A stretch of DNA of 64,000 nucleotides from an uncultured Alphaproteobacteria bacterium (GTDB lineage: Bacteria > Pseudomonadota > Alphaproteobacteria > RF32 > CAG-239): assembly GCA_949297145.1 (NCBI GenBank), contig CASFQO010000013.1, positions 18,768 through 82,767 of the forward strand, read 5' to 3'. The notes below the pieces were generated by a model that did no database searches, was not told where the DNA came from, and saw only the letters and a program-made list of their open reading frames with translations. Both the position numbers and the translations under genes were made by a program. The first letter of the stretch is position 1. Each line of letters starts with the position of its first letter. Below are positions 5,900-53,810 of the stretch, piece after piece.

Positions 5900-8353
5900 A
5901 TGTTCGGATGCGCCGTTACCACTTCTTTTTTGGGAAGTCTTGCCGCTTTATTGCTCTTTTGCAGATATTGCGCATTTGCTTCTGTCGGTATGGGGTGGAA
6001 AATAACTTTCTTTATCTTATTTATGTTGATTGCTTGCTTACCGATGTTGGCGGAATATAACTTTGAAGAATATTTAGGCAAATATTATGTTGCCTATCGT
6101 TATGTGCTTTATTTCCTATTTATCACCATGGTGATATTGTTTAGTTTGACGGTTGTACGCGATATTATTTGGGGGATTTTGAGAATCTTTTCTACCGAGT
6201 TTAAGCCCCTTGCCTCACCTCACTTAAATGTTATTAACGTCATCACGATTGTTTTGGCTTTTGTTATCGGCGGGTTTTCTCTTTATGACGGCATGAAAGT
6301 TCCCGCTACAAAATATATCAGTGTTAGCGATCCCAAAATTTTACAAGATAAAAAAATTGTTTTGTTACCGGATTTACATCTGCACCGCGCCTTAATGCCG
6401 GCTAAGCTGCAGGGAATTGTGGCGCAAACCAATGCGCAAAATCCGGATGTTATTTTGCTTATCGGGGATATGATTGACGATGATATTTCTCGGGTTTCGG
6501 AACAATTGAAAATTTTAGGGGGATTAAAAGCTAAATACGGCGTTTATTTTGTTTCCGGAAACCATGAATTTTATCACGATTTTAACAAAACCTCTCAGGC
6601 GCTTCAAAACTTAGGTTTTAAACTTTTAGAAAATGACGGCGTGCAGATTACAGAAGATTTGTATTTGGGAGGCGTTCCCGATATTCACTCTCAATCTTTA
6701 AGTCATAAAAAGCCGGATTTGGATAAAACTTTTGCAAAGGCTTTGCCTCAGCAATATAAAATTTTGATGTCTCATACCCCGGCAAATTTTGAAAAAACAC
6801 CTTTTGATTTGGAAGTTTCCGGTCATACACACGGTGGACAAATCTTTCCGTTTGTCTTTTTTATTTATGCGCATGCTCCTTATGTTGCCGGCTGGTATGA
6901 CTTAAACGAGACGGCTAAACTTTATGTTTCGCGTGGAGCCGGACAATGGGGACCGCAAATGCGCTTTTTGGCACCGGCTGAAATTGCGGTTTTGACGTTG
7001 AAAGCAGGAAATTCTGCGGCTGAAAACAAAACTTCAGCTACTTCTGACCACCAAAAACCTAAGGCTAAGGTCCATTTTACCTCTGAATTGACACCGGAAG
7101 CTTTGGTCAACATCTACAACAAGGTTAACCAAAATATCTCGGGTAAAGTTGCGATTAAATGGCACTCCGGCGAGCCGCACGGACCGAATATTCTCCCTAT
7201 CCCTATGGTGAAAGCCTTGCAAGAATCTATACCGAACAGTAATTTGGTGGAAACAAATACCCTCTATGAAGGGGGACGCCATACGACCGAAAAACATCGT
7301 GAGACCTTGAAAATCAACGGTTGGGATTTTTGTAAAGTGGATATTATGGATGAATTCGGAACGGTGATGCTGCCGGTTAAAGGCGGAAAGCACTTTAAGG
7401 AAATGTCTATGGGAAAAGGCATTTTAGATTATGATTCCATGGTGGTGCTTACTCATTTTAAGGGGCATCCGATGGGTGGTTTCGGCGGTTCTATTAAAAA
7501 TATCGCCATCGGCAATGCGGACGGCAAAATCGGTAAGGCTATGGTGCATGGGGCTGATAAATTTAGTCTTTGGAACGCAACACAATCTCTGCTCATGGAA
7601 AATATGGTTGAATCGGCAAAGGCTACTTTGGATCATTTTGGTCCGAAAATTACTTATATCAATGTGTTAAGAAATATGTCTGTTGATTGCGACTGTATGG
7701 GGACGGCCGCCGCTAAAGTTAAAATCCGTGATTTGGGGATTTTGGCCTCTACCGATATCGTGGCCTTGGATCAGGCTTCTATTGATTTATTAATGAAGCA
7801 GCCTGAAACCGAACTTCATGACATCAAAGAGCGTATTTTAAGTCGTGAAGGATTGCATCAGTTGGATTATGCCGAACAAATGGGCTTGGGAACTCGTGAC
7901 TATGTGTTGATTAACCTTGATTCTTCTCCATCCGGTTATGAGCAAGCTCTCCAAAAAATTAAAAATAACGATGCTTCCGCTGTCTTAGTTAAGGATAACC
8001 TTATGGTGGCACAAGGGCATGGAAAAGGTATTAGACCATTGATGGATCTTCATGATAAGTGGCCGGAACTTTTAGAAGATGCTTCCTTAATTGATAAAGT
8101 TATCGGAAGAGCGGCGGCTTTTATTGCCATTGATGGAAAAGCGCGGACGGTTTATGGTGAATTGATGAGCCAGGAAGCCTTTGATTTGCTCCAAAAGAAT
8201 CATATTCCTGCAACTTATGGAAAATTGGTGCCGCAAATCTTAAATCGCCACAAAGATGGTCTATGTCCGATGGAAGAAACCGTTGCGCATACGGATAATC
8301 CGAAAAAAGCTGTTGAACTTTTAAAACAAAAGATGGAAACTTTGGGACTATAA
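5900..8353 (+). CDS. Membrane-anchored metallophosphoesterase fused to DUF362-like and DUF1893-like domains
   Basis: Single 817-aa ORF with RBS AAGGAG. Four N-terminal TM segments, then calcineurin-like motifs (LLPDLHLH, LIGDMIDD, VSGNHE, VSGHTHGGQ). A low-complexity linker is followed by a DUF362-like region (KWHSGEPHGPN...LTHFKGHPMGGFGGSIKNIAIG...VDCDCMG). The C-terminus is DUF1893-like (VIGRAAAFIAI...CPMEE). Confidence 0.75.
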   Translation: MFGCAVTTSFLGSLAALLLFCRYCAFASVGMGWKITFFILFMLIACLPMLAEYNFEEYLGKYYVAYRYVLYFLFITMVILFSLTVVRDIIWGILRIFSTEFKPLASPHLNVINVITIVLAFVIGGFSLYDGMKVPATKYISVSDPKILQDKKIVLLPDLHLHRALMPAKLQGIVAQTNAQNPDVILLIGDMIDDDISRVSEQLKILGGLKAKYGVYFVSGNHEFYHDFNKTSQALQNLGFKLLENDGVQITEDLYLGGVPDIHSQSLSHKKPDLDKTFAKALPQQYKILMSHTPANFEKTPFDLEVSGHTHGGQIFPFVFFIYAHAPYVAGWYDLNETAKLYVSRGAGQWGPQMRFLAPAEIAVLTLKAGNSAAENKTSATSDHQKPKAKVHFTSELTPEALVNIYNKVNQNISGKVAIKWHSGEPHGPNILPIPMVKALQESIPNSNLVETNTLYEGGRHTTEKHRETLKINGWDFCKVDIMDEFGTVMLPVKGGKHFKEMSMGKGILDYDSMVVLTHFKGHPMGGFGGSIKNIAIGNADGKIGKAMVHGADKFSLWNATQSLLMENMVESAKATLDHFGPKITYINVLRNMSVDCDCMGTAAAKVKIRDLGILASTDIVALDQASIDLLMKQPETELHDIKERILSREGLHQLDYAEQMGLGTRDYVLINLDSSPSGYEQALQKIKNNDASAVLVKDNLMVAQGHGKGIRPLMDLHDKWPELLEDASLIDKVIGRAAAFIAIDGKARTVYGELMSQEAFDLLQKNHIPATYGKLVPQILNRHKDGLCPMEETVAHTDNPKKAVELLKQKMETLGL

Positions 8354-49625: not shown

Positions 49626-49677
49626 GATAAGACCACACTTGTATCTGCCAACTGTGGTCTTATTTTTTGGAACTCTT
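49626..49677. terminator. Terminator hairpin between convergent genes
   Basis: ATAAGACCACA-25 nt-TGTGGTCTTAT followed by T6. The loop is large. Confidence 0.55.
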
Positions 49678-49688
49678 TTGCTTGCTTC

Positions 49689-50150
49689 TTATTTGTAAAA
49701 TTGAGGGTGGAAGTTTTGCGCGAATACTTTTTTATCCATTCCGTTGATGCTGGTTATCTGAGGATTTTCCATAATCTCTTCTAGCTCTGTGGTACAAAAT
49801 GTGCTGCGTTCATCTGCTCCTTCTACAAAAGCATTGATGTTTCCCTTGGCTTCTTTGATGTATCTTGATGAGGCTATTCTCCAAATTTTGGTTATTTCTT
49901 CCCCTACCTCATCCACACGACCATCAAGCCCTAATCCGATTAGAGCTTGACCGCACGGCGTGTCATCCAACATTTTTGCCTTTTCATGGGTTTGAATAAA
50001 CGCTTTTGCCGCCTCTTTGTTTTTAGAATTAGGCATATAGCTTACACTGTAGACTACGGCATAATCCGGCTCTGTTGCTACACTTTCATGTTTTGCAATT
50101 TCATATGCCTTTTCCAGACAATTATTCATCTTTTTTATCTTCTTTTGCAT
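49689..50150 (-). CDS. Hypothetical protein; tentative ADP-ribosyl cyclase/CD38-like (NAD glycohydrolase-like) core
   Basis: 153 aa (or 146 aa from the second Met). MLDDTPCGQAL resembles TLEDTL(L/P)GY. KIWRIASSRYIKEAKGNINAFVEGA resembles (F)W..(A)S..(F/Y)A..A.G.V..M(L/V)(N/D)GS. STFCTTELEEI resembles STFGSVEVHNL, which holds the catalytic Glu of CD38. This comparison is from memory, not a search. Confidence 0.35.
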   Translation of the reverse strand: MQKKIKKMNNCLEKAYEIAKHESVATEPDYAVVYSVSYMPNSKNKEAAKAFIQTHEKAKMLDDTPCGQALIGLGLDGRVDEVGEEITKIWRIASSRYIKEAKGNINAFVEGADERSTFCTTELEEIMENPQITSINGMDKKVFAQNFHPQFYK

Positions 50151-51366
50151 CTAATGTTTTATCGTCTTGTGCTTCTGCTGATAGCGCCGCTGGTGTCGCT
50201 ATCTCCTCTGCTTTTTCTTTACTCGGTGTAAAATTAAACACGGTAATTTCTGATGGCGCAAAAATTCTTATTGGCGGCCCCCAATATCTTGTTCCTCTGG
50301 ATACATACATCTCTACGCCGTTTTTATTATAAAATCCGGCAAGAACACCTCCATTGGCACGCTCCGCAAAATAATGAAACGGGTAGATTTGTCCACCATG
50401 TGTATGTCCCGATAATTGTAAATCTACATTATCTTTATTAACCCCCGCAGCTATCTGCGGAGTGTGAGACAGTAATATTACATAATCGTCTTTTTCTGCC
50501 TTATAAAGTGCGTTGCTGATATTTACTTTCATCTTTGCCCATTCGGCCGCACGAATATCCGGAATACCTGCTATATAAATCCCCGTGTTTCCAAGCTTTG
50601 CCCCGTAATTATTCAGAAATTCAAACCCTAATTGGGCAAAACCTACCGCCCATTGCATGGCTCCGGAATAAAATTCGTGATTTCCTAAAACAACATACAC
50701 ATGATCCCTTGGTGATAACTGTTTTAGTTCCATCATCTGAGCAAATAATTTTCCCGGGGCATTATCAATAATGTCTCCGACTAACACAACGGCATCCGGT
50801 TTTAAGGAATTAACTTTATCAACTAATTTCTTAACGGTTTTCGGTGAAGTATCTGCATCTATATGTAAATCTGACAACATAACGACTTTTGTTGCTTCTT
50901 TAATTTTAGGGGAGCTTATGTCATATGTTTTTATGGCTGGCATCTTTTCAGCTTCATATAGACCATACAAGCAGAACAGCAGGCAGAATACAATCGTTCC
51001 GACATTCACTTTATTTAATAACGCCGTATTTTTTAAATCTGAAACCGGAACGCGTCTGATAAAATCAATCAGCGCCCAAATCATGTCGCGTATTACCGTT
51101 ATGGCAAATAAGAAAAAGACAAATCCAAACCAGAAATAAAGTATCTTAGTTATATATACAAAACTATCTTCTAAGCTGGTGCGGTGAACAGCAAAACCGA
51201 TGAGCGGCGCAAACCACCCAAAGGCTACAAACAAAAAGCACCCTAGTTTTGTATACCAATGATATTCCCCATACCCGACATAAGTTTTATACGTGATGGC
51301 GATTGCAGCAAGAGCTACAACTAAAAAAGCTACTTCTACAGGCATAAATCTTCTCCCTCTTTTCAT
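50122..51366 (-). CDS. Membrane-anchored metallophosphoesterase (paralog of the N-terminal part of 5900..8353)
   Basis: Four N-terminal TM segments, then MLSDLHID, LVGDIIDN, LGNHEF and LSGHTHGGQ. The acidic/Lys-rich C-terminal tail overlaps the next gene by 8-29 nt. Confidence 0.85.
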   Translation of the reverse strand: MKRGRRFMPVEVAFLVVALAAIAITYKTYVGYGEYHWYTKLGCFLFVAFGWFAPLIGFAVHRTSLEDSFVYITKILYFWFGFVFFLFAITVIRDMIWALIDFIRRVPVSDLKNTALLNKVNVGTIVFCLLFCLYGLYEAEKMPAIKTYDISSPKIKEATKVVMLSDLHIDADTSPKTVKKLVDKVNSLKPDAVVLVGDIIDNAPGKLFAQMMELKQLSPRDHVYVVLGNHEFYSGAMQWAVGFAQLGFEFLNNYGAKLGNTGIYIAGIPDIRAAEWAKMKVNISNALYKAEKDDYVILLSHTPQIAAGVNKDNVDLQLSGHTHGGQIYPFHYFAERANGGVLAGFYNKNGVEMYVSRGTRYWGPPIRIFAPSEITVFNFTPSKEKAEEIATPAALSAEAQDDKTLDAKEDKKDE

Positions 51367-51376
51367 TGCCTAACAA

Positions 51377-51937
51377 TTATGCTTCTGCAACTTTCTCTTC
51401 TTCTTTTTTTGCCTTGCGCGGTGTGCTTATTCTTCTTCTCACGGTCCGCTTTGGCTTGCTTTCATTTTCCGGTTGTGGTTCTTCGGCTATTTCTACAACC
51501 TTAAAGTTTTTGACATTTGTTTTTTCAACAGCCGGTAAAGTTTCTACATAGCCGTTTGCTTCCGGTATCGGTTCTATTGGTGCAGTATCTTCTGCTTTTA
51601 CCTCATCTTCTTCTGAAGATGTATCTTCAGCACTATCTTCTGCATCGCTTTCGTTATTCTCTTCCACGCGATTTTGCTGCTCTTGTCTAAACTGACGGCG
51701 CTCATTAATCTCGGTGACAATTTTACGATAGTGTTCAGCATACTGACGATATATTTCCATATCTACATAATTTCCACTGCCCTGAGCTTCTTTGGCCAAA
51801 TCATTATACTTTCTGATTAAATCTAGAGCAGTACCGCTTATCTTGCCGGCGATGCTTACGCTATCAAATTTATAGTTCAGCGTGTAACCATTATTGTTAC
51901 CGCCATTGTTACGAAATCTATTATTTTGCTTTTTCAT
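51377..51937 (-). CDS. DUF4167 domain protein
   Basis: N-terminal Asn/Gly-rich segment, then LIRKYNDLAKEAQGSGNYVDMEIYRQYAEHYRKI, with an acidic then basic tail. It lies downstream of prmC, as is typical in Alphaproteobacteria. Confidence 0.75.
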   Translation of the reverse strand: MKKQNNRFRNNGGNNNGYTLNYKFDSVSIAGKISGTALDLIRKYNDLAKEAQGSGNYVDMEIYRQYAEHYRKIVTEINERRQFRQEQQNRVEENNESDAEDSAEDTSSEEDEVKAEDTAPIEPIPEANGYVETLPAVEKTNVKNFKVVEIAEEPQPENESKPKRTVRRRISTPRKAKKEEEKVAEA

Positions 51938-52078: not shown

Positions 52079-52909
52079 CTATTTTTTTAATATCACACAT
52101 CTGTTTATCCCTCCTAAATCTTGGACGATTTTTTGTAATACTAATCCTTCATTTTCAAATATTTCTCCGATTTTTTCTGCTTGTCCTATTCCTGCCTCTA
52201 TTAGAATATATCCCTCCTTTTTTAGCATAGAAGGCGCAAGCTTTGCTATTTCTCTATAACACTGATAACCATCCTTGCCACCATCTAAAGCAATCTTGGG
52301 ATCGTAGGTTTTGACTTCTTCCTCTAAATTTGCAATTTCACTGCTTTCTATATACGGCGGATTGGTTACAATCATATCTAGGCTATTATCTAACTCTTTC
52401 AACTGCATCCAGGAGCAATTCTTAAATGTACATCTTGTGGCAACCTCTAATCTTTCCGCGTTCTCTTTCGCTACGTCTAATGCTTTTTTTGAAATATCAA
52501 CCCCTATTCCGCGGAGCTTCGGATATTCTTTTAATATTGACAGCAAGATACAGCCACTGCCGGTTCCTAAATCTAAAACAGTGCCCTCATTTTTATCCTT
52601 GAGCAGATTGATTGCCTCTTCCACTAAAATTTCTGTATCCGGTCGCGGCGTCAATACATCTTGATTAACCTTAAATACAGATTTATAAAATTCTCTCTCC
52701 CCTATTATCTTATCCAGTGGCTCATGATTTATTCTTCTTTTGAGCATTTCATAAGCTTTCGCTCTCTCTGTTTGGTTCACCTCCGGATATGATGGGGCTG
52801 CGTGTTTTAGAATAATATCTGTTTCTAACCGCGGAGAAGGAATTCCCGCTTTAATCAGCGTTGATATTATTTCTTCGCGCAAATTCCCTATTTTCGCATT
52901 TTCAGTCAT
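52079..52909 (-). CDS. prmC: Release-factor glutamine methyltransferase
   Basis: VLDLGTGSGCI and the IVTNPPY motif. 276 aa. Confidence 0.92.
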   Translation of the reverse strand: MTENAKIGNLREEIISTLIKAGIPSPRLETDIILKHAAPSYPEVNQTERAKAYEMLKRRINHEPLDKIIGEREFYKSVFKVNQDVLTPRPDTEILVEEAINLLKDKNEGTVLDLGTGSGCILLSILKEYPKLRGIGVDISKKALDVAKENAERLEVATRCTFKNCSWMQLKELDNSLDMIVTNPPYIESSEIANLEEEVKTYDPKIALDGGKDGYQCYREIAKLAPSMLKKEGYILIEAGIGQAEKIGEIFENEGLVLQKIVQDLGGINRCVILKK

Positions 52910-52913
52910 CTTA

Positions 52914-53810
52914 TTATGCTGCCATGGCCTTTTTTACTTCTGCCGATAGTTTTTCAAAGGCTTTCTTTTCTATCTGACGAACACGCTCGCGACTGATATT
53001 AAAGTGCGTTCCTATATCATCCAACGTCACAGGATTTTCTGTTAACATTCTGTTTTTTATAATATATTGCTCGCGTTCATCTAATTTCTTTAGGCATTGA
53101 GCCAAAATTTTAGCTTTATATGCTTGTTCTTGACGTGCCGCTAATTTACCTTCAATATTTTCACGGCCGTCTATAACCATATCTATTTTTTCGCGACCGT
53201 CTTCATCGTCCCCGACATTAACATTTAACGAGCTGTCTCCACCGATACGACGGTTCATCTCGGTTACATCTTTTTCATCAACAACCAACTCTTTGGCTAT
53301 TTCTTTAACAACTTTGGGCTCCAGCTCTTTATTTTCGTATATACCCAAACGCGCCTTAATACGGCTTAAATTATAAAATAATTTCTTTTGCGCGGCTACC
53401 GTGCCAATTTTTACCAATGACCATGAACGCAAAATGTAATCGTTTATAGCGGCTTTGATCCACCAAATGGCATATGTTGCCAAGCGAACTTTTTTATCCG
53501 TATCAAATTTTTTCACTGCCTGCATTAAGCCAATATTTGCCTCAGAAATAACATCAGACATCGGTAAGCCATAACGACGATAAGTTAAGGCTATTTTGGC
53601 GGCCAAGCGTAAATGCGACGTTATCAGCTTTTGGGCTGCCATTAAATCACCTTTGGTTTGAAACTCTTCAATCAGCTTTTTTTCTTCGTCTTCGGTTAGC
53701 ACCGGAAAGCGTTTAATCTGCTCCAAATAGGTATATAACCCATTTTCCTCAACCACCATAGGCAGTTGCGGTTTGGGATTGACGACGACTAAATTTTTAT
53801 GTTCACTCAT
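52914..53810 (-). CDS. rpoH: RNA polymerase sigma-32 (heat-shock sigma factor)
   Basis: Region 2 (LRLAAKIALTYRRYGLPMSDVISEANIGLMQAVKKFD), an RpoH-box-like AAQKKLFYNLSRIKARL, and region 4 (ISRERVRQIEKKA). Confidence 0.9.
   Translation of the reverse strand: MSEHKNLVVVNPKPQLPMVVEENGLYTYLEQIKRFPVLTEDEEKKLIEEFQTKGDLMAAQKLITSHLRLAAKIALTYRRYGLPMSDVISEANIGLMQAVKKFDTDKKVRLATYAIWWIKAAINDYILRSWSLVKIGTVAAQKKLFYNLSRIKARLGIYENKELEPKVVKEIAKELVVDEKDVTEMNRRIGGDSSLNVNVGDDEDGREKIDMVIDGRENIEGKLAARQEQAYKAKILAQCLKKLDEREQYIIKNRMLTENPVTLDDIGTHFNISRERVRQIEKKAFEKLSAEVKKAMAA

Follow-up and report, generated by a model that had tools for sequence, protein, structure and literature searches.

The window, by which we mean the whole 64-kb stretch of DNA that was analyzed, encodes a minimal ADP-ribosyl-cyclase/CD38-like catalytic core with a catalytic glutamate in STFCTTE, an assignment that the profiles, the fold, and the active site all support. 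The protein, called ARC here, is a single domain of 146 amino acids. It is probably a cytoplasmic, stand-alone, NAD(P)+-cleaving member of the bacterial ARC family and not a deployed toxin, with its adjacency to a membrane metallophosphoesterase (MPE) gene being an operon arrangement specific to its clade. CD38-type cyclases were regarded as a eukaryotic invention until the bacterial finds of 2025. The preliminary description of this DNA had agreed on the CD38-type core and its catalytic glutamate and had taken the genes to be of an unrecognized kind; bacterial mini-ARC enzymes, mostly toxins, were described in 2025 under the names Tac1, ARCtox, and, for a nontoxic member, Nac1 (PMC12356396, PMC12605009). 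The family is thus already known, and the window protein extends the 2025 set of bacterial ARCs.

The features of the locus are collected in Table 1. Both minus-strand open reading frames exist as they had been described, according to the ORF list, and the ARC start does overlap the end of the MPE gene. The start itself had been placed at the first ATG (49689..50150 on the minus strand, 153 aa) and did not stand. Because ARC homologues, about 140 in all, are 142 to 149 or 150 aa long and align from M8, as seen for nearly all of the at least 120 listed, the start is predicted from the alignment to be the ATG at 50127-50129, for a protein of 146 aa; the seven codons upstream of it probably lie outside the protein. 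This ATG sits within GATGAATAA and so overlaps the end of MPE by 8 nt, not 29 nt, which is the junction geometry of translational coupling. The sequence of the overlap region shows no strong Shine-Dalgarno at the junction. On the other side, the gene downstream of ARC is a convergent prfC, and the minus-strand RNA between the two folds into a hairpin with a dG of -22.6 kcal/mol (z = -4.7; 0 of 200 shuffles folded equally well). The hairpin is flanked by U/A-rich sequence and is likely a bidirectional intrinsic terminator that closes the ARC transcription unit. A consensus scan for promoters and terminators gave the same counts as shuffles, the terminator hairpin being seen only on direct folding.

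Table 1. Features of the ARC locus, in coordinates of the window
Feature	Position	Strand	Basis or remark
Stand-alone ARC gene (CD38-like ADP-ribosyl cyclase/NAD glycohydrolase fold)	49689..50129	minus	146 aa plus stop
MQKKIKK codons, seven, in frame 5' of the ARC consensus start	50130..50150	minus	within MPE coding sequence
Membrane metallophosphoesterase (MPE) gene	50122..51366	minus	414 aa ORF
MPE stop/ARC start overlap, 8 nt, ATGAATAA	50122..50129	minus	sequence
Hairpin between convergent ARC and prfC genes	49627..49663	.	RNA fold
DUF4167 gene, 10 nt upstream of MPE	51377..51937	minus	Pfam DUF4167 7.5e-17
prmC	52079-52909		member of conserved block with MPE and ARC
rpoH	52914-53810		member of conserved block with MPE and ARC
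Predicted ARC active-site codon Y27	50049-50051	minus	
Predicted ARC active-site codon D55	49965-49967	minus	
Predicted ARC active-site codon W83	49881-49883	minus	
ARC codons S109-T110-F111	49797-49805	minus	
Predicted catalytic ARC codon E115	49785-49787	minus	

The AlphaFold model of ARC (pLDDT 94.7, pTM 0.88) and its Foldseek matches present the two-lobed α/β ARC fold, with an N-lobe made of helices and a sheet of four strands flanked by helices. Structural comparison bore out the proposed kinship with CD38 and Aplysia cyclase: the best 50 Foldseek matches in the PDB were all ARC/CD38 structures, led by 9RO8_A, a Pantoea T6SS ARC toxin (E = 1e-5), and followed by CD38, Tac1 (9OUF), and Aplysia cyclase, with query TM scores of 0.49 to 0.59. 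Sequence identity to Tac1 and ARCtox in these alignments was about 18 to 21%. The TM scores, just about 0.5 to 0.6, came with a high RMSD; a hinge motion of the two lobes is expected.

Profile searches agreed with the structures. A family-profile search of the PDB ranked ARC proteins first (9RO8, E = 0.0046; porcine CD38, 0.023; Tac1, 0.042), and an hhalign comparison of this profile with human CD38, whose sequence was confirmed to be identical to 9GOX_A, gave an E value of 1.7e-4 and aligned exactly the three motifs discussed below. PF02267 was the Pfam family matched by the largest number of family members: sub-threshold matches were obtained in 21 of 24 (best E, 1.7e-4), and scores across the members tested were 12 to 20 bits, all under the 25-bit gathering score, with the window protein at 12.3 bits (E = 0.1). 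The PF02267 model is built from metazoan sequences, and a precomputed PF02267 call exists on a few proteins of a neighboring clade. When 1.84 billion representatives were searched with the profile, 576 relatives were found, among them ARC domains of the CdiA type and others linked to PAAR or ankyrin. The top matches of single-sequence Pfam and PDB searches, namely, PPR-repeat, DUF4106, and otubain, were spurious, and family profiles alone resolved the relationship.

The motif order is the same as in CD38/CD157 and Aplysia cyclase (LEDT/LDDT, FW..S.RF/IW..S.RY, and STFGSVE/STFCTTE), and the fold is alike by Foldseek. However, the metazoan CD38-type proteins are disulfide-rich ecto-enzymes of 250 aa that carry additional helices, and these parts are absent from ARC, as had been stated. 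The lack of a signal peptide was likewise upheld, the N terminus being a polar helix that forms part of the fold in the AlphaFold model.

The three CD38-type motifs that had been read from the letters are present, in order, and conserved. The first is L54-D55-D56-T57..G60, the second W83..A86-S87.R89-Y90..G96-N97..F101-V102, and the third S109-T110-F111...E115. Across 24 homologues that are 59 to 80% identical to the window protein, L54, T57, G60, W83, A86, S87, R89, G96, N97, F101, V102, S109, T110, F111, and E115 are invariant, and D55, D56, and Y90 are kept in at least 90%. By hhalign, the motifs fall on CD38 E146, W189/S193, and S220-T221-F222/E226. Thus, D55 aligns with E146 of the LEDT motif (Tac1 E516, ARCtox E299), with Asp in place of Glu; W83 aligns with W189; and E115 of STFCTTE aligns with E226 of STFGSVE (Tac1 E573, ARCtox E356), the position being E in 221 of 230 wider relatives. 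Y27 was matched to the first tetrad Trp (CD38 W125, ARCtox W273) by spacing to the ARCtox tetrad, the intervals being 28/28/32 for Y27/D55/W83/E115 versus 26/24/33 for ARCtox W273/E299/W323/E356. The predicted active-site set is Y27/D55/W83/E115. In the wider ARC branch, Y or F occupies position 27 and E or D occupies position 55; W83 and E115 show almost no variation. Because toxin-type C-terminal domains of the branch carry D at position 55 in 11 of 39 cases (E in 26), and because Nac1 has Ala there and is nonetheless a cyclase (PMC12356396), this position appears to be tolerant and would tune the product without defining membership.

The genomic setting is that of a core gene. ARC is the last gene of a block in the order rpoH-prmC-DUF4167-MPE-ARC, which is syntenic in 32 of 34 GTDB-species loci, plus extra loci (L001-L004). 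The 34 gut alphaproteobacterial GTDB species, among which ARC identity is 44 to 100%, came from a contig scan with peptide patterns of the window's clade, and that scan recovers this clade alone. ARC conservation resembles that of prmC, and the GC content of the gene is 40.1%, versus 38.6% for the window. ARC thus belongs to the core genes, passed on vertically, of a clade of uncultured gut Alphaproteobacteria.

On the reading that we favor, ARC would cleave NAD+ and/or NADP+ at the nicotinamide-ribose bond, with E115 stabilizing the ribosyl intermediate, and would release ADP-ribose (ADPR) and possibly cyclic ADP-ribose (cADPR). The Asp at the position that tunes hydrolysis versus cyclization is compatible with more than one product ratio. 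The protein would be expressed as the last cistron of the block, its translation probably occurring by re-initiation at the stop/start overlap with MPE, which would keep the ARC level low and tied to that of MPE, and the hairpin would end the unit behind it. An unregulated cytoplasmic NADase should be toxic. Since Tac1 variants whose activity is reduced by orders of magnitude remain lethal to E. coli, ARC must be restrained in some way, whether by low activity, by an inhibitor encoded at another site, or by use of a different substrate.

A published precedent is Nac1, a nontoxic bacterial ARC that makes cADPR (Colautti, Kim & Whitney, J Biol Chem 2025, PMC12356396). By its published description, Nac1 is, like the window protein, a stand-alone ARC fold of about 150 aa with the catalytic Glu kept and with neither a polymorphic-toxin link nor an adjacent immunity gene; the window ARC, a Tac1 homologue away from polymorphic-toxin systems, falls in the Nac class in this respect, and both proteins probably form ADPR and/or cADPR from NAD+. 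They differ in that Nac1 has a Sec signal peptide and is probably extracellular, whereas ARC has none and is predicted to be cytoplasmic, and in that the CD38 E146 position is Ala in Nac1 and Asp in ARC. The Nac1 paper (PMC12356396) offers no informative gene neighborhood, whereas the ARC gene is the final cistron of a block that is conserved and inherited vertically.

The neighbor in that block was analyzed in the same way. Hydropathy and AlphaFold (pLDDT 82) support the four N-terminal transmembrane helices ascribed to MPE (9-31, 37-62, 68-104, and 114-140 in the model), which precede a YaeI/COG1408-like catalytic domain at about residues 141-384 and an acidic disordered C-terminal tail at 385-414. 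MPE matches Pfam PF00149 (Metallophos, 1e-16) and carries the dimetal motifs of the calcineurin-like superfamily (D166/H168, G197-D198, G228-N229-H230-E231, H301, and H321-T322-H323); the metal ligands D166, H168, D198, N229, H230, H301, H321, and H323 are invariant in 21 homologues. It shares with YaeI/COG1408 proteins and chlamydial LpxG the calcineurin-like fold, all metal ligands, the GHTHGGQ motif, and an N-terminal membrane anchor. The best NCBIfam matches were LpxG (66.7 bits versus a cutoff of 350) and YaeI (63.1 versus 188); the YaeI model aligns over its full length, and MPE was rejected as an equivalog of either, the scores being far under the cutoffs. Our search for usable literature on DUF4167 or YaeI functions found none. 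Foldseek gave generic MPE matches, with Mre11/SbcD, Rv0805, 5'-nucleotidase, and MPPED2 ahead of 2NXF, which we take to be zebrafish ADPRibase-Mn and which ranked 31st (E = 8.6e-4). A sequence search of the PDB returned no match for MPE at E < 0.001. MPE is YaeI/COG1408-like and generic, and no specific similarity to ADPRibase-Mn was found.

These properties bear on the proposal, made in the preliminary description, that the two genes make and degrade an NAD-derived nucleotide. In a dedicated module of this kind, ARC would convert NAD(P)+ to ADPR/cADPR and MPE would split the product at its pyrophosphate bond into AMP and ribose-5-phosphate and thereby end a signal or complete a route of NAD breakdown and salvage. 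Some enzymes of the MPE superfamily, such as ADPRibase-Mn, hydrolyze ADPR and cADPR, and the intact metal ligands of MPE are consistent with such a role. Within the clade the pairing was conserved as had been supposed: MPE lies directly 5' of ARC in 33 of 34 species, with an overlap or a gap of no more than 2 nt (-2 to 20 nt), also in the most divergent one (L038; ARC 44% and MPE 40% identical). In one species (L037/L040) the genes are about 17 kb apart and both are retained, and in a second clade (L042 and L047) MPE and ARC stand in one block with clpB in between. However, because the whole rpoH-prmC-DUF4167-MPE-ARC block is syntenic, the in-clade adjacency is not independent evidence, and outside the clade the pairing did not hold. 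Among nine representatives of distant ARC relatives whose contexts were taken (L041-L049), ARC follows clpB in three (L042, L047, and L048), and the nearest out-of-clade ARCs have no MPE within 5 kb: L048 (51% identical) has the order clpB-ARC, L044 (47% identical) has ARC straight after DUF4167, and L041 and L046 have unrelated contexts. The MPE family is, moreover, very large (>7,900 homologues at E ≤ 1e-10), with a second paralogue, fused to other domains, in the window itself. The catalytic domain might not face the cytoplasm; a positive-inside count over 91 MPE homologues gave about equal inside and outside sums. With sister clades placing ARC elsewhere and MPE being generic, we consider a dedicated pair doubtful. 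The simplest view of the adjacency is a clade-specific operon arrangement; degradation of the ARC product by MPE is possible, and the adjacency is the one observation that argues for it. The conserved overlap in those 33 species is also what would be expected of a true functional pair, a counterpoint to incidental adjacency.

A different departure from our reading concerns the substrate. ARC might keep the fold and not turn over NAD(P)+ in vivo, acting instead on another N-ribosyl substrate (e.g., NMN, NaAD, or a nucleotide-derived metabolite), carrying out mainly base exchange, or serving as a nucleotide-binding regulator tied to the heat-shock/translation block. Viability is hard to explain with a constitutive NADase in the cytoplasm and no inhibitor, and the first tetrad Trp and the first Glu are replaced in ARC by Tyr and Asp. 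Stress genes also recur beside ARC, with rpoH in the window block, clpB in the three loci named above, and dnaK/dnaJ near L041; clpB was not found in the window. However, since Y and D are frequent also in toxin-type C-terminal ARC domains of the branch, Y27/D55 is no mark of a changed substrate. No variation is seen in the catalytic Glu, the STF motif, or W83, as expected of a working NAD-site enzyme, and every characterized member (CD38, Aplysia cyclase, Tac1, ARCtox, and Nac1) uses NAD(P)+. We regard a protein without NAD(P)+ turnover as distinctly unlikely.

It is highly improbable that ARC is itself a toxin, either an interbacterial effector delivered with no trafficking domain fused to it or the toxic component of a toxin-antitoxin or abortive-infection system, with its immunity or antitoxin elsewhere or in the upstream gene. 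The idea draws on the best profile and structure matches, Tac1 (a Streptococcus parasanguinis T7SSb LXG toxin, 9OUF) and ARCtox (a Pantoea ananatis PAAR toxin, 9RO8), which share with ARC the two-lobed core of about 145 aa, the catalytic Glu, the second Trp, and a similar tetrad spacing. Some T6SS ARC effectors are, in addition, separate proteins (PMC12356396), and three distant stand-alone ARC relatives (L043, L045, and L049) adjoin Imm74 genes, so some members of the branch need an inhibitor. However, Tac1 and ARCtox form the C-terminal domains of polymorphic toxins that are secreted and have adjacent immunity proteins (Imm74 or ARCimm), and they deplete NAD(P)+ extremely fast, whereas the window ARC is a free-standing core chromosomal gene with Y and D for the first W and E. 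No trafficking module (LXG, PAAR, VgrG, Rhs, or CdiA/TPS) is fused or linked to it, its neighbors being MPE, DUF4167, prmC, rpoH, and prfC, and secretion-system genes are absent from its flanks. Downstream, the convergent prfC stands where an immunity-like gene of the Imm74/ARCimm type might be sought. In our reading ARC, which has no trafficking domain, signal peptide, or adjacent immunity gene, is not a deployed toxin. When the six-frame ORFs of the window were searched by phmmer with two Imm74 queries, a weak search, no homologue of Imm74 turned up (E > 0.9). A stable syntenic locus across 34 species, with host-like GC and prmC-like conservation, is the opposite of variable, mobile polymorphic toxins and defense islands. 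ARC as a defense gene was rejected because PADLOC gave no match for it and a single weak generic match for MPE (PDC-S10, E = 3.8e-6) and because its context is one of syntenic core genes; the likeness to an abortive-infection or signaling module that had been drawn is, in a housekeeping block of host GC, unlikely.

The 2025 work on bacterial ARCs argued for their spread by horizontal transfer and left open the role of cADPR in bacterial physiology. In the window, an ARC with a complete predicted active site is, unlike those horizontally spreading proteins, a stable and vertically inherited core gene, whose product has no visible inhibitor and whose translation would be tied to the upstream gene. 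The locus is a candidate for asking whether bacteria use ADPR/cADPR made by a CD38-like enzyme internally and how cells tolerate such an enzyme. It is unlikely, in our estimate, that the clade runs an endogenous cytoplasmic pathway in which an immunity-free ARC makes ADPR/cADPR, is coexpressed with heat-shock and translation genes (the rpoH block here, clpB in sister clades), and has its product hydrolyzed by MPE. If true, such a pathway would be the first housekeeping or stress-signaling use of a bacterial CD38-type cyclase, outside the roles of weapon and secreted enzyme. If ARC is merely a weak NADase in NAD turnover, it would be a modest extension of the known family. On the practical side, the locus offers a well-defined 146-aa target, with E115, D55, W83, and Y27 as the residues of interest and MPE, ClpB, and DUF4167 as candidate partners.

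The small protein encoded directly behind the membrane metallophosphoesterase (MPE) gene is a member of the bacterial branch of the ADP-ribosyl cyclase (ARC) superfamily. The single sequence matched PF02267 at E=0.1, among unrelated matches equally weak. At the family level, PF02267 was the Pfam family matched by most members (21/24, best E=1.7e-4). A 24-sequence profile run against all PDB sequences gave as its best match 9RO8 (E=0.0046), a Pantoea ananatis T6SS "ADP-ribosylcyclase toxin," followed by porcine CD38 (5BNF, 0.023), by 9OUF (0.042), which is the Streptococcus parasanguinis toxin Tac1, and by about 20 CD38 entries. The AlphaFold model (pLDDT 94.7, pTM 0.88) was compared with the PDB using Foldseek, and the top 50 matches were all ARC enzymes, among them 9RO8 (E=1e-5), CD38, Tac1, and Aplysia cyclase, with query-normalised TM scores of 0.49 to 0.59. 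When the profile was searched exhaustively against 1.84 billion cluster representatives, 576 relatives were obtained at E<=1e-3, 103 of them at E<=1e-10. The 576 include the C-terminal domains of one filamentous-haemagglutinin (CdiA-type), one PAAR-linked, and one ankyrin-repeat protein, and several of these themselves match PF02267 below threshold. Together with the active-site alignment, these profile and fold matches bear out the preliminary description, which had read the protein as a CD38-like mini-enzyme.

The three motifs on which that reading was based are present in the correct order, and the family shows no variation at most of their positions. The invariant ones are L54, T57, G60, W83, A86, S87, R89, G96, N97, F101, V102, S109, T110, F111, and E115, while D55, D56, and Y90 are nearly so. 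An hhalign comparison of the family profile with the human CD38 ectodomain (100% identical to 9GOX_A) covered 84 columns at E=1.7e-4. It paired L54-D55-D56-T57..G60 with CD38 L145-E146-D147-T148..G151, W83 with W189, S87 with S193, S109-T110-F111 with S220-T221-F222, and E115 with the catalytic E226. The toxin ARCtox has a catalytic tetrad, W273/E299/W323/E356, with spacings of 26/24/33 (PMC12605009). The spacings of Y27/D55/W83/E115 in the ARC protein, 28/28/32, resemble these, and Y27, in a conserved V-V-Y-S strand, was therefore assigned as the putative counterpart of the first Trp, a spacing-based match and not a residue-level superposition. When 230 wider relatives were aligned to the family HMM, position 27 was with few exceptions Y or F, position 55 was E or D (among toxin-type C-terminal domains, E in 26 and D in 11), and W83 and E115 were nearly invariant. 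Judged by this alignment, the ARC protein carries the standard active-site set of its branch, which supports the prediction that the enzyme is active. On the model of CD38, Tac1, ARCtox, and the bacterial ARC protein Nac1, it would cleave the nicotinamide-ribose bond of NAD(P)+ to give ADPR and/or cADPR.

The two open reading frames lie on the minus strand (see the table). The search for homologues of the small protein gave about 140. Of the 120 that were listed, almost all have lengths of 142 to 150 amino acids and align with the small ORF from its eighth codon onward. We accordingly place the ARC start at the ATG at 50127-50129, within GATGAATAA, giving a 146-residue protein whose gene overlaps the MPE stop by 8 nt (ATGAATAA). 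The overlap in the preliminary description thus stands, with its first-ATG start replaced. The stretch 5' of this ATG is A-rich and lacks a strong Shine-Dalgarno element. The ARC start falls within an acidic, disordered MPE C-terminal tail of about 30 amino acids, the length of which varies across the clade. At the other end, the first seven MPE codons (MKRGRRF) may be untranslated, since most orthologues begin at the equivalent of M8 (MPVEVAF...).

Features of the window and ARC loci outside the clade (positions of the locus concerned)
Feature	Coordinates	Strand	Remark
Small ORF from first ATG	49689..50150	-	153 aa; ORF calling
ARC gene	49689..50129	-	146 aa
MPE ORF	50122..51366	-	414 aa; ORF calling
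First seven MPE codons	51346-51366	-	
Hairpin	49627-49663		between convergent ARC and prfC genes
Second membrane MPE paralogue	5900-8353	+	817 aa; fused to C-terminal DUF362 and DUF1893/TM1506 domains
L042	2405-5432		prmC-DUF4167-MPE-clpB-ARC; ARC/clpB-stop overlap 8 nt
L047	2410-5432		prmC-DUF4167-MPE-clpB-ARC; ARC/clpB-stop overlap 1 nt
L048	2395-5474		clpB-ARC, no MPE in view; clpB-ARC gap 26 nt
L044			asnS-hyp-rpoH-prmC-DUF4167-ARC, no MPE
L041			ARC adjoins tsaB and histidine kinase gene
L046	4320-6452		ARC between HAD hydrolase and flavodoxin-like reductase genes
L043, L045, L049	4038-5585, 4031-5567, 4104-5501		Imm74 - ARC paralogue - ARC paralogue

The ARC gene is vertically inherited in one alphaproteobacterial clade. 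A contig scan yielded 34 genomes at the species level, each of them an Alphaproteobacteria MAG from gut or rumen. One uncultured gut alphaproteobacterial MAG contig, CALXWH010000006.1, is 100% identical to the window over the ARC gene. An MPE orthologue lies directly upstream in 33/34 genomes, and the translational-coupling geometry is conserved, with extremes of a 2-nt gap and a 20-nt overlap. Even the most divergent genome (L038; ARC 44% and MPE 40% identical to the window) keeps it. In one species (L037/L040), the MPE gene is at its DUF4167 site and the ARC gene is about 17 kb away, flanked by an antiporter gene and thrS. Across species, identity to the window is 44 to 100% for ARC (56 to 100% without L038), 40 to 97% for MPE (54 to 97% without L038), and 54 to 96% for PrmC. 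These ranges indicate that ARC is a resident gene under purifying selection, not a mobile element. The GC contents of ARC, MPE, and the window are 40.1%, 39.0%, and 38.6%, and PADLOC gave no defence-system match for ARC. The hairpin beyond the ARC gene has a 15-bp interrupted stem with U/A-rich flanks and is much more stable than shuffled sequences (dG -22.6 kcal/mol, z = -4.7); a consensus scan missed it because of the interruption. It is plausibly a bidirectional intrinsic terminator, in which case the transcription unit would end with ARC.

The preliminary description had also proposed that the two genes form a dedicated pair that makes and degrades an NAD-derived nucleotide. We consider such a module unlikely. 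The one point in its favor is the adjacency of the genes, and sister clades do not share it. Within the clade, the whole block asnS-hyp-rpoH-prmC-DUF4167-MPE-ARC is syntenic, so adjacency there does not independently point to a functional link. We looked up the contexts of nine more distant ARC relatives: the pairing seen in 33 clade species is interrupted by clpB in L042 and L047, L044 has no MPE, and L048 has none in view. From these contexts and those of the clade, ARC is in most cases the final cistron, coupled tightly to whichever gene precedes it, MPE is not its constant partner, and the adjacency is clade-limited.

A specific kinship of MPE with ADPRibase-Mn was likewise not upheld. The protein has four hydrophobic helices by hydropathy (9-31, 37-62, 68-104, and 114-140 in the AlphaFold model), followed by a calcineurin-like phosphoesterase domain (PF00149, 1e-16) with metal ligands all invariant among 21 homologues. 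It is YaeI/COG1408-like, far under equivalog cut-offs, in a family of >7900 members at E<=1e-10, and no PDB sequence relative was found at E<0.001. Foldseek matches were generic (Mre11/SbcD, Rv0805, 5'-nucleotidase, MPPED2), and zebrafish ADPRibase-Mn (2NXF) ranked only 31. The link of ARC to the neighboring MPE is probably incidental. The second MPE paralogue in the window shares the 4-TM plus MPE layout (127/373 identical); we know of no other three-part fusion of MPE, DUF362, and DUF1893/TM1506.

Heat-shock genes recur near ARC (clpB in L042, L047, and L048, rpoH in the window's block, and dnaK/dnaJ near L041), which may reflect synteny or be meaningful. The L046 reductase is NAD(P)H-dependent, and the next gene, on the opposite strand, belongs to the isochorismatase family, which includes nicotinamidases; this single instance is a possible NAD-salvage neighborhood. 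L043, L045, and L049 are all chromosomal, with toxin-system genes absent nearby. Of their two paralogues, the upstream one retains D/W/E at the active site; in the downstream one, the equivalents of W83 and of the acidic residue 55 are lost. Such an arrangement, lying outside toxin systems, could be immunity-regulated or involve a pseudo-enzyme.

Mini-ARC domains some 145 amino acids in length were described from bacteria in two 2025 papers (PMC12356396, PMC12605009). An Imm74 protein neutralises the LXG/T7SSb toxin Tac1 (PMC12356396), the PAAR/T6SS toxin ARCtox has an immunity protein of its own (PMC12605009), and both toxins deplete NAD(P)+ (PMC12356396, PMC12605009). ARC domains were stated to occur exclusively with secretion-targeting domains (PMC12605009). 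In contrast to these toxins, the window protein lacks a trafficking domain, and what lies downstream of its gene is the convergent prfC, not an immunity gene; no Imm74 homologue was found in the 64-kb window. Closest in concept is the "non-toxic" Nac class, defined by the lack of toxin-system neighbors (PMC12356396), a description that fits the window protein. However, the tested example, Nac1, has a signal peptide (PMC12356396), whereas the window protein has none, and the tuning position is Ala in Nac1 and Asp here. Ala at the E146-equivalent residue of Tac1 leads to cADPR release, and Nac1, with a natural Ala there, makes cADPR (PMC12356396).

The window protein combines the complete active-site set typical of the ARC branch with a stand-alone, signal-less architecture. 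It adds to the recently described bacterial ARC family a new, divergent member that is inherited vertically, and we infer for it NAD(P)+ glycohydrolase or cyclase activity, a cytoplasmic location, and a non-toxin role. The family itself is already known; the novelty lies in the setting, a core gene for an intracellular protein with no immunity gene, and this opens bacterial ADPR/cADPR physiology to direct tests. Tolerance of a cytoplasmic ARC protein with no visible inhibitor is a puzzle, because crippled Tac1 variants are still toxic in E. coli (PMC12356396). The enzyme may be intrinsically weak or, through coupling, poorly expressed; an inhibitor may be encoded at another site, or the substrate may differ.

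DUF4106 (PF13388) gave sub-threshold matches in 16/24 family members (best E 5.9e-5), the window protein (residues 37-109) and 15 others, spanning profile positions 50-122, the LDDT-to-AFV part of the ARC core. DUF4106 is a family expanded in Trichomonas, and it might contain an unrecognised ARC-like region. Among the distant relatives, P0290, P0263, and P0344 have unusual ARC architectures: in P0290 the ARC domain is N-terminal and a PAAR motif C-terminal, the inverse of the published PAAR-ARC order, and in P0263 an ARC domain follows ankyrin repeats.
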